Positions 2,216 through 27,236 of a stretch of 64,000 nucleotides of DNA are shown one piece after another. The DNA is taken from assembly GCF_041886205.1 (NCBI RefSeq), contig NZ_CP169029.1. The stretch is one strand, 5' to 3'. The position numbers and the translations under genes are program-made. The notes beneath the pieces were generated by a model, which was not told where the DNA came from, did no database searches, and was given only the letters and a program-made list of their open reading frames with translations. Origin of the DNA: Escherichia coli (GTDB taxonomy: Bacteria > Pseudomonadota > Gammaproteobacteria > Enterobacterales > Enterobacteriaceae). Within the stretch, counting starts at the first letter, position 1, and every line of letters starts with the position of its first letter.

Positions 2216-2385
2216 AATGGCTCACTCAAGCTTGCTCACGATTGATTCCAGTAACAAACCGTATTGTGTAATTATTTCTATAGCAGCTCGCTATATAGGT
2301 TTGTATACATCGAATAATTTGAAAATCAAAGAGATAGGTAGATTTTCACTCGAAAGTAGTATTACGTGTAAGTGAGGAGTAATTA

Positions 2386-2399
2386 TTGTTCGGTATCAA
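2386..2399 (-). promoter_or_regulatory. Candidate FNR binding site in the dmsA promoter region
   Basis: TTGTTcggtATCAA matches the FNR consensus TTGAT-N4-ATCAA in 9 of 10 half-site positions and lies upstream of dmsA, a known FNR-activated operon. Confidence 0.45.
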
Positions 2400-2407
2400 A
2401 GGGAGAC

Positions 2408-2434
2408 AAAAAAAGCGCCCGCAGGCGCTTTTTA
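2408..2434 (-). terminator. Intrinsic terminator downstream of serS (palindromic, possibly bidirectional)
   Basis: aaagcgcc-cgca-ggcgcttt hairpin flanked by A-run and T-run, immediately 3' of the serS stop. Confidence 0.5.
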
Positions 2435-2453
2435 GATTCAGAAAAATTGGGTA

Positions 2454-17383: not shown

Positions 17384-17531
17384 CATTTTATCTGCCTGTA
17401 CGGCAGTGAACATGGTGGGCGGGTGGAGTATGTTACCAGTGAATTTCTAAGCTGCCTGTACGGCAGTGAACGCCAACTTTCACAGCCTTTGCAAGATTGT
17501 TCCTTTCTAAGCTGCCTGTACGGCAGTGAAC
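17384..17531 (-). CRISPR. Orphan type I-F CRISPR mini-array: 3 repeats, 2 spacers of 32 nt, no adjacent cas genes
   Basis: Minus-strand 28-nt repeat GTTCACTGCCGTACAGGCAGCTTAGAAA (the E. coli/Yersinia subtype I-F repeat) at 17504-17531 and 17444-17471, plus a degenerate terminal copy at 17384-17411. Spacers at 17472-17503 and 17412-17443 are exactly 32 nt each. Confidence 0.85.
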
Positions 17532-17743
17532 TCAAATACTACACGTTTAGCCCGTTGTTAATAAAGCAAAACCATCTCATTTTCCTGCTGTCACCCTTTT
17601 TTATCCTTACCTTCCAGCAGCACTAATTATCAACAACTTACCTTCACCTCCAAAAATAGGGTTTTCACCGTTCCACCCCATAAATAAAAAGTCCGCAACC
17701 TCTTTCGAGATTACGGACTTGACCAACCTACCTAACAATCAGA

Positions 17744-24163: not shown

Positions 24164-25156
24164 ATGGTGAAATCGACGTCATGTATAACCATTGATTTCA
24201 TGAATATGTCGCAGCTAACTGAACGGACCTTTACGCCATCTGAATCTCTCAGCAGCCTGTCACTTTTTCTTAGTCTGGCACGTGGACAGTGTCGGCCGGG
24301 TAAATTCTGGCATCGCCGTAGTTTTCGCCAGAAATTTTTGCTGCGCTCGTTGATTATGCCGCGTTTAAGCGTTGAGTGGATGAACGAACTTTCCCACTGG
24401 CCTAATCTCAATGTATTGTTAACGCGCCAGCCGCGACTGCCTGTGCGTCTGCATCGCCCTTACCTTGCGGCGAATCTTAGCCGTAAGCAATTGCTGGAGG
24501 CGTTACGTTACCATTATGCGTTACTCCGCGGATGTATGTCGGCGGAAGAATTCAGCTTATATTTGAATACCCCCGGGCTGCAACTGGCGAAGCTGGAAGG
24601 CAAAAACGGCGAGCAGTTCACGCTTGAGCTGACCATGATGATCTCAATGGATAAAGAAGGTGACAGCACAATCTTGTTCCGCAACAGCGAAGGTATTCCT
24701 CTGGCAGAGATCACGTTTACCCTGTGTGAATATCAGGGGAAAAGAACGATGTTTATTGGCGGACTGCAAGGCGCAAAATGGGAAATTCCACATCAGGAAA
24801 TCCAGAATGCGACGAAAGCCTGCCACGGGCTATTTCCCAAACGCCTCGTGATGGAAGCGGCCTGTCTGTTTGCCCAACGTTTGCAGGTAGAGCAGATTAT
24901 TGCCGTCAGCAATGAAACGCATATTTACCGCAGCCTGCGTTATCGCGATAAAGAAGGCAAGATCCACGCTGATTACAACGCTTTCTGGGAATCGGTTGGC
25001 GGCGTATGTGATGCTGAACGCCATTACCGCCTTCCAGCACAGATAGCACGAAAAGAGATTGCCGAAATCGCCAGTAAAAAACGGGCTGAATACCGTCGGC
25101 GCTATGAGATGCTCGACGCTATTCAGCCACAAATGGCCACGATGTTTCGCGGTTAA
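24164..25156 (+). CDS. ybjX: VirK/YbjX family (DUF535) protein
   Basis: 330-aa ORF divergent from macA. Family assignment is from memory of K-12 ybjX; the exact start is uncertain (alternative Met codons at 24203 and 24209). Confidence 0.8.
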   Translation: MVKSTSCITIDFMNMSQLTERTFTPSESLSSLSLFLSLARGQCRPGKFWHRRSFRQKFLLRSLIMPRLSVEWMNELSHWPNLNVLLTRQPRLPVRLHRPYLAANLSRKQLLEALRYHYALLRGCMSAEEFSLYLNTPGLQLAKLEGKNGEQFTLELTMMISMDKEGDSTILFRNSEGIPLAEITFTLCEYQGKRTMFIGGLQGAKWEIPHQEIQNATKACHGLFPKRLVMEAACLFAQRLQVEQIIAVSNETHIYRSLRYRDKEGKIHADYNAFWESVGGVCDAERHYRLPAQIARKEIAEIASKKRAEYRRRYEMLDAIQPQMATMFRG

Positions 25157-26811
25157 TCCGCGCGACCGCGCGCCAGCCACAGCACGCGTGAGAACATTTT
25201 TTTCAGCAGCGTCGGTACGGAGTCCACACCACGACGTCCTGCCTCCATTGCCACTTCAATGGCAAGATCGGGTTTGGAAGAGCGATGGATCGCTTTCGAG
25301 ATAATTTTGCGTAGATTCATCGGTACATTTTCCGGGATTTGCGCCACGCGGTGGAACACATCGGAAAATCCCTGGCGATACATAAAATGTTCCATATCCA
25401 GCGCCGGTAACGCCGTTAAATGTTCTCGTTCGGCTTCCCGATCGTTATTCAACAGGCTGCGTACCGTAGCGGCATATTTCTTCCCTGCTTCATCGCCATC
25501 GACCAGTACATGCCATTCAATCCCGATTCGGCGGGCAAATTTAACCAGTGGCTTTAGCCCGGACTGGGCAAACTCAATGACCTTGATCCCTTCGGCATCA
25601 AAATGATGTCCGCACTGACGCGCCAGTTCATTGATAACCCAGGTTTCCGTTTCCCCTTCCACCAGCAACCAGCAGCGTGCAAACAGCGATGACGGACGGT
25701 TAAAACGAATGTGAAAGGATATGCGTCGGCTATCTTCGGTACTCAAGCCACTCGGCCCCAGACGCCAGGCGGCAACGCGCGAGGACTCACGTACCAGTCG
25801 GCAAACATGCTCTACCGGCGTTAACGAAAGCAACTCACCCGAGTTGGTGGTGGCAATGCGCTGCAATGGCAGAAGATTCAACAGATGCCAGGCAACTGAA
25901 AGCATAATGGGGTGTAAACGGGTTTCTGGATCTTCGATCAGCAACAATGGACGGGCGTCTTTATCCAGTCGCAATGTGCCTTTTGCCTGCAACAAAGTAG
26001 CAAACAGGCCGAGCAAAATAACCCGATACGAGCGCCCACCAGGTCGGTCAATCATCCGGTTGATGATATCCAGATAGCGCCAGCTTCGTTGCTCATTGCT
26101 GGCTCGCCGCCGCATTAAACGATATCGCGCCTGTCCGGCCCCCTGCTCAGAGAAATAATGCTCAAGCAGCTGTACCATTGCGGAAAGTCCCTGACGAATC
26201 TGCCCATCAGAGAGATTTTGCGGATGTGAGGATAACTCACGGGCGAGGAAATCGAGCTGGCGCGCGGTGACTTCCACATTAGGGACATTTGGCACCGTGC
26301 CGTTACGAATACGGCGCATAAAACGGGCATCACGCAAGCGCAGCACCGGCATTAAACGCACCAGATGGCGTGCCTGATCGTTAATATCCTCGACATCAAT
26401 CGGATGTCCGTCTTTATCGAGAAAACTGCGCAGTGTCATCACGCTGCCGTCTTCCGCACTCTCCCCTTCCAGACGATAAAAAATACGGTGATAGCCATCG
26501 GTGCATGGCGTCCAGCACGCTTCCAGCGGCCGATAACGGCGAACCCGATGTCGGCCTGGCAGCGATTCGCGGAAGGTCAAAATAATATGCAGATGATGTT
26601 CTCGCCCGTTGATATCTCCCGGCGGGAACCAGAAATCGTCGCGCTCAAAATGGTAGAGATCTGATTCTGGCGATAGCAGCAGGGTTAAGGCGTCCAGCAA
26701 GCTGGATTTACCCCACGCGTTCTCCCCAATCAGGACGTTGTTTTGTTCCAGCATCAACGACAAACGGTTGATACCGCGAAAACCCACAATTTCAACGCGC
26801 TCAAGAATCAT
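25153..26811 (-). CDS. ybjD: OLD-family ATPase/TOPRIM nuclease homolog (class 1, single gene)
   Basis: 552-aa ORF; N-terminal ABC-like ATPase (MILERVEIVGFRGINRL...GENAWGKSSLLDAL) and a C-terminal TOPRIM-like acidic segment (CWLLVEGETETWV). Confidence 0.88.
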   Translation of the reverse strand: MILERVEIVGFRGINRLSLMLEQNNVLIGENAWGKSSLLDALTLLLSPESDLYHFERDDFWFPPGDINGREHHLHIILTFRESLPGRHRVRRYRPLEACWTPCTDGYHRIFYRLEGESAEDGSVMTLRSFLDKDGHPIDVEDINDQARHLVRLMPVLRLRDARFMRRIRNGTVPNVPNVEVTARQLDFLARELSSHPQNLSDGQIRQGLSAMVQLLEHYFSEQGAGQARYRLMRRRASNEQRSWRYLDIINRMIDRPGGRSYRVILLGLFATLLQAKGTLRLDKDARPLLLIEDPETRLHPIMLSVAWHLLNLLPLQRIATTNSGELLSLTPVEHVCRLVRESSRVAAWRLGPSGLSTEDSRRISFHIRFNRPSSLFARCWLLVEGETETWVINELARQCGHHFDAEGIKVIEFAQSGLKPLVKFARRIGIEWHVLVDGDEAGKKYAATVRSLLNNDREAEREHLTALPALDMEHFMYRQGFSDVFHRVAQIPENVPMNLRKIISKAIHRSSKPDLAIEVAMEAGRRGVDSVPTLLKKMFSRVLWLARGRAD

Positions 26812-27236
26812 ATCCCCTCCAGAAATATGTGACTTATCCTTTACGCTGGCAGTATAACGGGAAAGGCCTTGCTAATACGTGATGACATCACATTTAAGCA
26901 TGGCAAATGTCTGAAAAATGAGCGAATAATCGCGTTATACTCCCTCTTGCTGATAAGTCTGCAAAAACAACAAAATCAAATAATTAGCATGATAAATTAT
27001 TTTTTATTACGCCTAAAGGATTAAATCTTTTGCGTGCACTACACTGTCAATCAGACAAATGACTATATGGGGCAACCCGCTGTTGCCCTAAATCAAATTT
27101 ACTGGATTTATTTATCTGGTGAATGACTCGCCTTCGTTTTTAAAATAGCCGCGCATTATTTCCGTCGTCACTTTTTTACGACGACCCTATAAAACGACCA
27201 TATTTTTCACAGGGTCAATTTTTAATTGAGGTGGAT

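Follow-up and report, generated by a model that had tools for sequence, protein, structure and literature searches.

ybjD, a universal Enterobacterales gene of the OLD family, looks like a helicase-less Gabija GajA nuclease turned core gene

Introduction

What is the natural job of a gene whose family is at the center of current phage-defense research, if that gene is itself universal and strongly conserved in Escherichia coli, Salmonella, Klebsiella and their relatives? The question is raised by ybjD, one of the approximately 15% of E. coli genes without a known function (PMC13261556), which lies in a 64,000-nucleotide stretch of E. coli DNA (assembly GCF_041886205.1, contig NZ_CP169029.1; the whole stretch is referred to as the window). 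In the window, ybjD is an open reading frame (ORF) on the minus strand that runs from an ATG at 26811 to a TAA at 25153 and encodes 552 amino acids. A sequence-only reading of the window had described it as a single-gene OLD-family ATPase/Toprim nuclease, and the ORF, its Pfam matches and its identity to an annotated gene all bear this out. The coding sequence with its stop codon (25153..26811), for which the name oldB has also been proposed (PMC13261556), is 100% identical in DNA to the RefSeq E. coli chromosome gene "ybjD: ATP-dependent endonuclease," and the published ybjD cloning primers correspond to the start and end of the ORF (PMC13261556). Pfam assigns residues 1-375 to DUF2813 (E = 2e-160, far above chance) and residues 376-440 to OLD-like_TOPRIM (PF20469, E = 7e-16), with weaker matches of the N-terminus to AAA_15, AAA_21 and SMC_N, and profile matches include GajA, Thermus scotoductus (Ts) OLD, PtuA, SMC and Rad50.

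Thus, ybjD is not a new gene, and its natural function is still to be established. The sequence-only reading said as much of the function, and essentially it is still right, but the phage challenge of deletion and overexpression strains that it called for has already been published (PMC13261556). The answer to which we give somewhat better than an even chance is that ybjD encodes a GajA-type OLD enzyme without a helicase partner, carried as a vertically inherited core gene, whose ATP-gated nuclease is kept for a host function. Absent from the published work on ybjD are its core status, its vertical inheritance and its GajA-like C-terminal architecture; nor does that work set the invariance of the nuclease site against phenotypes that do not depend on the Toprim domain.

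Results and Discussion

YbjD Is Class 1 by Context and GajA-Like by Sequence and Predicted Structure

To which class of OLD enzymes does YbjD belong? In the survey that used YbjD (b0876) as the query to gather the OLD family, single isolated OLD genes were termed Class 1, those beside a UvrD-like helicase gene, that is Gabija, were termed Class 2, and E. coli was put in Class 1 (PMC6755086). The sequence-only reading also called ybjD Class 1, and as far as gene context is concerned it was correct. No UvrD/PcrA/Rep-like helicase, reverse transcriptase or split Toprim partner adjoins the gene, and the length of YbjD lies in the Class 1 range of 500-600 amino acids, versus 597-712 for the plasmid GajA proteins examined. 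The arrangement that defines Class 2, gajB directly after gajA, is not present: a tblastn search with four GajB queries found no GajB-like gene in 90 family loci and the window (1.49 Mb), and the same search detected six of six control Gabija loci.

Homology and C-terminal architecture give a different assignment. The best PADLOC models for YbjD are those of GajA (8e-80, 1e-40 and 8e-38), and the P2-type "Old" model, which recognizes P2 Old itself at 1e-214 (712 bits), matches YbjD at 1e-23 (82 bits). Two plasmid-borne, helicase-linked GajA proteins align over their whole length with a profile of the YbjD family (1e-35 over 530 columns and 1.3e-28 over 522 columns), in alignments that cover the D-x-E and SKP motifs. 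Against P2 Old the same profile gives a partial hhalign match that ends after the DxD motif (8e-13), and pairwise identity is 28% over 198 amino acids, so that the sequence affinity to P2 Old that marks Class 1 is lacking. For the sequences in the PDB a family profile was needed, a single-sequence search having returned weak, partial matches only; GajA and Ts OLD proved equidistant from the profile, in alignments that end near residue 441.

Predicted structures point in the same direction. The AlphaFold 2 (AF2) model of full-length YbjD, with a predicted local distance difference test score (pLDDT) of 86 and a predicted template modeling score of 0.85, has GajA, Ts OLD and Retron-Eco8 OLD as its top Foldseek matches. 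The best structural match of the C-terminal region is the corresponding region of Burkholderia pseudomallei (Bp) OLD (6NK8, Class 2; score 16.9, 2.4 Å, 164 residues), followed by GajA (8U7I, Class 2; 12.2, 3.2 Å, 170 residues) and Ts OLD (6P74, Class 1; 11.8, 3.2 Å, 142 residues). It is a C-terminal helical domain that separates Class 2 from Ts OLD (Schiltz 2020), and in the predicted structure of YbjD four helices follow the last Toprim strand and bear the invariant K513. YbjD therefore does not have the Ts OLD type of C-terminus, which is without the helical domain and the Insert-3 helix and has an Arg for the catalytic Lys. What it does have are the protein-level features of Class 2: homology to GajA over its full length, a Toprim plus helical C-terminus, and the catalytic Lys.

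By sequence and predicted structure, then, YbjD is GajA-like over its full length and is Class 1 by context only; the assignment is operational because the gene is solitary, yet its product lacks the structural and sequence features of Class 1 and possesses those of Class 2 at the protein level. Such mixed standing agrees with OLD phylogenies, in which Class 2 is nested within Class 1.

Comparison with characterized systems sharpens the picture. YbjD is like Gabija GajA (B. cereus 8SM3, B. pseudomallei 6NK8 and plasmid GajA) in its end-to-end homology, with D-x-E and SKP, and in the toxicity of its K35A variant (see below), which would be expected of an ATP-inhibited nuclease. It differs from GajA in having no GajB in the 90 loci, in lying on no mobile element or defense island, and in being shorter, with Asn in the H-loop and a Walker B pair of E-D instead of E-E. 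With P2 Old, Ts OLD (6P74) and Vibrio cholerae (Vc) OLD it shares the single gene, the order of ATPase then Toprim, and the two-metal site, but P2 Old is only remotely homologous. P2 Old and Vc OLD reside on mobile elements; recBC deficiency of the cell triggers their activity, or phage inhibitors oppose it. In all six of the best plasmid relatives of YbjD, the OLD gene overlaps a helicase gene that comes directly after it, and Shedu or AddAB-like genes are often near. An OLD-family endonuclease of Salmonella genomic island 1 (SGI1), S024, has even been annotated "ybjD," beside S023 "uvrD"; the two form a Gabija-type pair with a linked helicase, the island that carries them is mobile, and S024, which received the name by annotation transfer, is not a ybjD ortholog.

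On which nucleic acid would such an enzyme act? By analogy we favor DNA nicking as the activity of YbjD, because of its affinity to GajA and Bp OLD, and treat cleavage of tRNA, the activity of P2 Old and AriB, as the minority alternative. In its full form that alternative holds that YbjD is a Toprim toxin that cleaves tRNA and arrests translation, like P2 Old or AriB of PARIS, rather than a DNA nuclease, and we judge it improbable.

A Complete Nuclease Site Beside a Relaxed ATPase Head

Roles were assigned to individual YbjD residues by alignment to P2 Old together with the roles known for Ts OLD and P2 Old; all ybjD features below are on the minus strand. The N-terminal lobe of the ABC-ATPase (amino acids 1-159, 26335..26811; AAA_15/AAA_21/SMC_N, AF2 pLDDT >90) contains Walker A, G29 to S36 (G29-ENAWGK35S, 26704-26727, motif coordinates checked), whose K35 equals P2 K37 by motif position. 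It is followed by a helical insert in the ATPase (amino acids ~160-285, 25957..26334), in which AF2 places helices at 180-195, 202-221, 240-255 and 259-277 between strands 156-159 and 289-293; this predicted dimerization domain, modeled with low confidence (pLDDT 40-75), occupies the position of the dimerization domain of Ts OLD. The C-terminal lobe (amino acids 286-355, 25747..25956, from the P2 Old alignment) bears the Walker B residue E293 (LLLIE293-D; P2 D299, Ts E276), D294 and the D-loop H300 (P2 H306) at 25912-25947, as well as the H-loop position, N323, at 25843-25845 (P2 H332, Ts H310).

In these alignments the nucleotide-binding loop of YbjD is intact and the residues for ATP hydrolysis are relaxed. 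The H-loop has Asn323 in place of the canonical hydrolysis His, and the Walker B acid is followed by Asp294 instead of Glu, two features because of which ATP turnover by YbjD is probably weak. Such variation is widespread in the family alignment (n = 117: the query, 115 members of 480-700 amino acids, and P2 Old as an outgroup row), in which the H-loop position is N73/H19/Q13/Y9, position 294 is D68/E29/N10 and the Walker A lysine position is K103/R10. An H310A substitution abolishes the ATPase activity of Ts OLD, and His-to-Asn at the H-loop is frequent among Class 1 homologs (Schiltz 2020).

The nuclease half presents no such substitutions. The linker and Toprim domain (amino acids 356-470, 25402..25746; PF20469; pLDDT 94 in the model of the C-terminal region) carries E385-G-E-T-E389 (25645-25659) and D438-G-D440 (25492-25500), both invariant in the family, and the C-terminal helical domain (amino acids 471-552, 25156..25401) carries D472-M-E474 (25390-25398) and S-K513-P (25270-25278), of which D472, E474 and K513 likewise do not vary in the family. 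The ligands of metal A are E385, D438 and D440, equivalent to P2 E398, D453 and D455, and those of metal B are E389 (P2 E402 by alignment), D472 and E474. D472/E474 were likened to P2 D541/E543, and the basic residue K513 to the catalytic Lys of P2 (K550) and Bp (K562), by analogy and not by alignment, as both the pairwise and the profile alignments with P2 Old end before this region; in the profile comparison with GajA, the three residues align with its D-x-E and SKP motifs. By these correspondences, the two-metal nuclease site is complete and is spread over the Toprim and C-terminal helical domains. The sequence-only reading had called the ATPase and the Toprim-like acidic motif intact, which is right for the latter and for Walker A and has to be qualified for the H-loop His and the position after the Walker B acid.

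Selection Is Strongest on the Part That Published Phenotypes Do Not Need

An exhaustive search of 1.84 billion representative proteins returned 1974 relatives of YbjD, 333 of them at E <= 1e-30, and the pattern of conservation in the family is lopsided. The Toprim and metal-site residues are kept in 115-117 of the 117 rows of the family alignment, and of the 26 invariant columns in a 46-sequence alignment, 20 fall at or after R362, within the linker, the Toprim domain and the C-terminal helical domain. In five of five comparisons between Enterobacterales species, the nonsynonymous substitution rate (dN) of the Toprim half is approximately half that of the ATPase half.

What has been observed in cells is of a different kind. 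Deletion of ybjD in the Keio collection left sensitivity to all 68 BASEL phages unchanged (Atahualpa et al. 2026, PMC13261556). In the same study, arabinose-induced YbjD reduced plaquing of Bas18 and Bas20 and made the plaques of the T7-like phages Bas64-68, five in number, smaller. The inducer level used for this was not toxic, and stronger expression was; residues 1-377, which lack the Toprim domain, kept the phage effects, and a construct without the ATPase lost them. The Walker A variant K35A also kept the phage effects and was more toxic, and recBC(ts) cells survived YbjD, unlike P2 Old (PMC13261556).

On the sequence data, selection is strongest on the nuclease, without which the published overexpression phenotype still appears, and from this we infer that the phenotype does not report the function that has been maintained. 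Could the reverse be true, that is, could only the ATPase/dimerization module be functional, in an ABC protein that binds DNA or protein and has a vestigial Toprim domain, or could ybjD be a decaying Gabija remnant that has lost GajB? The behavior of the 1-377 and ATPase-less constructs and the failure to find GajB count in favor. The invariance of the catalytic residues, the concentration of invariant columns from R362 onward and the slower evolution of the Toprim half all speak against a vestigial Toprim domain. As for decay, the whole-gene ratio of nonsynonymous to synonymous substitution rates (dN/dS) is 0.015 versus E. albertii and 0.032 versus Citrobacter, no higher than for macB, aqpZ or lysO (synonymous rates are saturated for more distant species), and values of 0.015-0.03 rule decay out; moreover, ybjD is intact and single-copy, with 95-100% identity, in 5424 of 5426 complete E. 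coli genomes. These selection data already largely refute both versions, which we regard as highly improbable.

Giant YbjD homologs of 815-1867 amino acids also exist, with named members from Anaerobiospirillum, and keep all the conserved blocks: P0294 (Anaerobiospirillum, locus L085, 8001-11564), P0149, P0161, P0163, P0165, P0166, P0175 and P0206. The idea that the giants contain SMC-like coiled coils was rejected for P0294, the sole one examined, whose inserts are low-complexity (Ser/Asp/His/Gly/Pro/Ala-rich) and follow residues ~63 and ~497 in YbjD numbering, the second lying inside the C-terminal helical domain.

ybjD Is Inherited as a Core Gene

If YbjD were an accessory defense protein, its gene might be expected to come and go. 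A scan of Enterobacterales with one genome per species gave 80 loci, in which YbjD identity drops with phylogenetic distance, from 97-99% in Escherichia through ~90% in Citrobacter and ~85% in Klebsiella and Enterobacter to 66-68% in Serratia, Pectobacterium and Brenneria. In every locus with flanking sequence, ybjD lies between hcr-hcp-lysO and cspD-clpS, and it is the genes around it that vary: ybjX and aqpZ were each found in 56 of the 80 species, macB in 66 and macA in 67. Pairwise distances of YbjD correlate with those of LysO (0.94), Hcp (0.93), Hcr (0.91), MacB (0.90) and ClpS (0.86), and the G+C content of ybjD, overall and at third codon positions, is the same as that of the adjoining genes. 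Beyond Enterobacterales, ybjD homologs are solitary among housekeeping genes in Vibrio, Motilimonas, Anaerobiospirillum, an Acidobacteria metagenome-assembled genome and other contigs. The notion that the family is limited to gammaproteobacteria with Dam, SeqA and MukBEF was dropped, the Acidobacteria genome having a member with 38% identity.

Mobile replicons gave the opposite result. No member of the YbjD family was found in the phage collection, in which the matches were remote and partial (25-28%), to P2 old and one unannotated phage contig. Among the plasmid matches listed, none was a family member on a true plasmid: the full-length ones were chromids, mislabeled chromosomes or chromosomal fragments with ybjX, and identity fell from at least 40% (E <= 1e-117) straight to at most 32% in partial matches (E >= 1e-10). 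In a 2060-bp phage record (OR845570.1, "Escherichia phage ECO95 1-6-1," H13), codons 1-98 of ybjD are present at 91% identity; the sequence probably stems from the host and is not a phage-borne ybjD.

All of this sequence evidence indicates that ybjD is a core, vertically inherited, non-mobile gene, a distribution opposite to the patchy, mobile pattern of defense genes and without their generic hallmarks. Where does this leave the proposal that ybjD is a stand-alone, fixed anti-phage or abortive-infection gene that, like P2 Old, Vc OLD or Gabija, kills the cell when triggered by phage or degrades phage nucleic acid? It gains from membership in the OLD family with Gabija GajA proteins as nearest relatives, from the restriction of Bas18, Bas20 and Bas64-68 by induced YbjD, and from an orphan type I-F CRISPR (clustered regularly interspaced short palindromic repeats) remnant ~7.6 kb away, which indicates that the wider region has hosted defense genes. 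Set against it are the lack of any effect on the 68 phages when the native gene, which is expressed, is deleted, a phenotype independent of the Toprim domain, the most constrained part of the protein, and the survival of recBC(ts) cells. It must also contend with a gene that is core, syntenic, vertical and under strong purifying selection, and that is absent from phages, plasmids and defense islands. We consider this proposal possible, although rather unlikely.

The CRISPR remnant itself is an array at 17384-17536 on the minus strand, between clpA and the infA side, with three repeats of 28-33 nucleotides, one of them degenerate, at 60-nucleotide spacing; two match Rfam CRISPR-DR4 (type I-F-like), and no cas genes were noted nearby.

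A GajA-Type Enzyme Probably Kept for a Host Function

How, then, might a GajA-type enzyme without a helicase work as a core gene? The nuclease of GajA is inhibited by ATP, and B. cereus GajA does not hydrolyze ATP (reviewed in PMC10568477). In a GajA-like manner, binding of ATP to the ABC head of YbjD, rather than its hydrolysis, may keep the nuclease of the Toprim and helical domains off; loss of the bound nucleotide, or a nucleic-acid or protein trigger, would then release metal-dependent nicking or cleavage, and hydrolysis would be slow or unnecessary. The increased toxicity of K35A, which is unable to bind ATP, could be explained in this way, because ATP binding would no longer keep the nuclease off. 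The function under selection would need the nuclease. The Toprim-independent restriction seen on overexpression would probably be a side effect of the ATPase/dimerization module, and here we can only speculate that this module binds DNA or titrates a factor. A host role in nucleic-acid maintenance or a stress response seems likelier than accessory phage defense, because of the constraint on the nuclease, the core and vertical distribution and the deletion without a phage phenotype; background immunity might be a side benefit.

There are several points that weigh against a nuclease kept for a host function. Point mutation of three Toprim acids, or deletion of the whole Toprim domain, left the YbjD phenotypes unchanged (PMC13261556), and a nuclease-dependent phenotype has not yet been seen in published experiments. 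The literature searched yielded no biochemistry of YbjD, so that both its substrate and the effect of ATP are inferred, and its structures are predictions only. Finally, ybjD is non-essential, and no housekeeping phenotype was found in the literature searched. Nor was any mention of DUF2813 found there. Other papers that name ybjD use it as a safe-harbor insertion site, list it in expression tables or transfer its name to the Gabija genes of SGI1, and none of them bears on function.

A more specific version can be put forward only tentatively, as one that we hold possible and no better: YbjD would be a "domesticated" Gabija-type nuclease, a GajA lineage minus its helicase that was fixed in an ancestor of Enterobacterales and relatives and that strong purifying selection has since maintained for a nuclease-dependent role in the host other than classical phage defense, for example in processing aberrant DNA structures or in responding to nucleotide depletion, possibly with host superfamily 1 (SF1) helicases. 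There is a precedent in Cran1, an OLD-family ATPase/nickase of Sulfolobales (PMC12796447), which is vertical, tracks host phylogeny, is apparently non-antiviral and is harmful when overexpressed. For Cran1, the same argument from a non-mobile distribution led Yang et al. to seek, and to find, a non-defense role (PMC12796447). The two differ in that Cran1 is archaeal, essential, cell-cycle regulated and a member of a separate clade, U11, whereas ybjD is non-essential.

Transcription Signals and Neighboring Genes

The ybjD gene is preceded by a Shine-Dalgarno sequence, GGAGG (26816..26820, minus strand), and the 10 genera compared keep either GGAGG or GGGGG at this position. Besides this ribosome-binding site and the start codon, what is conserved in the ~250 nucleotides immediately 5' of ybjD is chiefly TATACT (26851..26856, minus strand), which in the cross-genus alignment is invariant in 10 of 10 genera, 39 nucleotides upstream of the ybjD ATG. 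It is a plausible candidate for the -10 hexamer of ybjD on sequence grounds; a recognizable -35 element was not seen beside it, the rest of the intergenic region is poorly conserved, and a consensus sigma-70 scan of the aqpZ-ybjD spacer found no full promoter.

At the other end, a candidate intrinsic terminator of ybjD (25074..25128, minus strand; hairpin and U-tract, from a terminator scan), with a predicted RNA fold of -37.2 kcal/mol (z = -2.8), lies inside the 3' end of ybjX. The latter gene (24164..25156, plus strand; DUF535, VirK/YbjX family) is convergent with ybjD, and the two stop codons overlap in the palindrome TTAA at 25153-25156. Because the candidate terminator is within the ybjX coding sequence, the 3' ends of the two transcripts would be mutually antisense; a 2025 RNA-seq survey includes the pair among its convergent excludons. 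With such an overlap, induction of ybjX by PhoP could affect expression of ybjD. Regulation of ybjX by PhoP is known from the literature only: a search for PhoP boxes gave 16 matches versus 13.8 expected by chance, which is uninformative, and none in the macA-ybjX or aqpZ-ybjD intergenic regions. No RNA family was found in or beside ybjD with Rfam.

The sequence-only reading had set ybjD beside a virK homolog and macAB, and these genes are indeed present in the window: macA and macB (minus strand) lie beyond ybjX, and aqpZ, divergent, is on the other flank of ybjD. A functional link of ybjD to ybjX or macAB was considered and rejected, as this adjacency carries no functional weight when those genes are variably present beside a ybjD that stays in place; distances of YbjX correlate with those of YbjD at r = 0.51. 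YbjX is 92-98% identical within Escherichia and 56-74% in Citrobacter, where YbjD is ~91% identical, and ybjX is absent from Klebsiella, Raoultella and several other genera (loci L002-L081), a divergence that suggests replacement or an exchange of paralogs (virK versus ybjX). The macAB and clp genes recur near ybjD in differing arrangements. In one locus (L090, 7001-11223) the ybjD homolog overlaps the start of clpS by 4 nucleotides, with clpA and infA next in line, which is the E. coli order in compact form, and in another (L091, 2428-8641) macA-macB-OEP-ybjD are co-oriented with a 4-nucleotide overlap, followed by tig, clpP and clpX. Elsewhere in the window are two small RNAs unrelated to ybjD, STnc130 (2306-2440, plus strand, 140 bits) and RybB (60980-61058, plus strand, 104 bits), both identified at the Rfam gathering threshold.

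Conclusions

A gene that is universal, that resembles gajA without the helicase, and whose nuclease site is its most conserved part but is irrelevant to the only published phenotype may have a real job that the "anti-phage" label misses. Estimates of how common single-gene OLD systems are may have missed it as well: the prevalence of Class 1 OLD in DefenseFinder is given as 0.45% of genomes (PMC12392090), a figure that probably omits the ybjD clade because it rests on a P2-type model, on the PADLOC counterpart of which YbjD scores 82 bits. If the domesticated Gabija reading is true, YbjD would be the bacterial counterpart of archaeal Cran1. What remains of interest is an OLD nuclease that is universal in Enterobacterales and that looks like a GajA turned core gene after the loss of its helicase.

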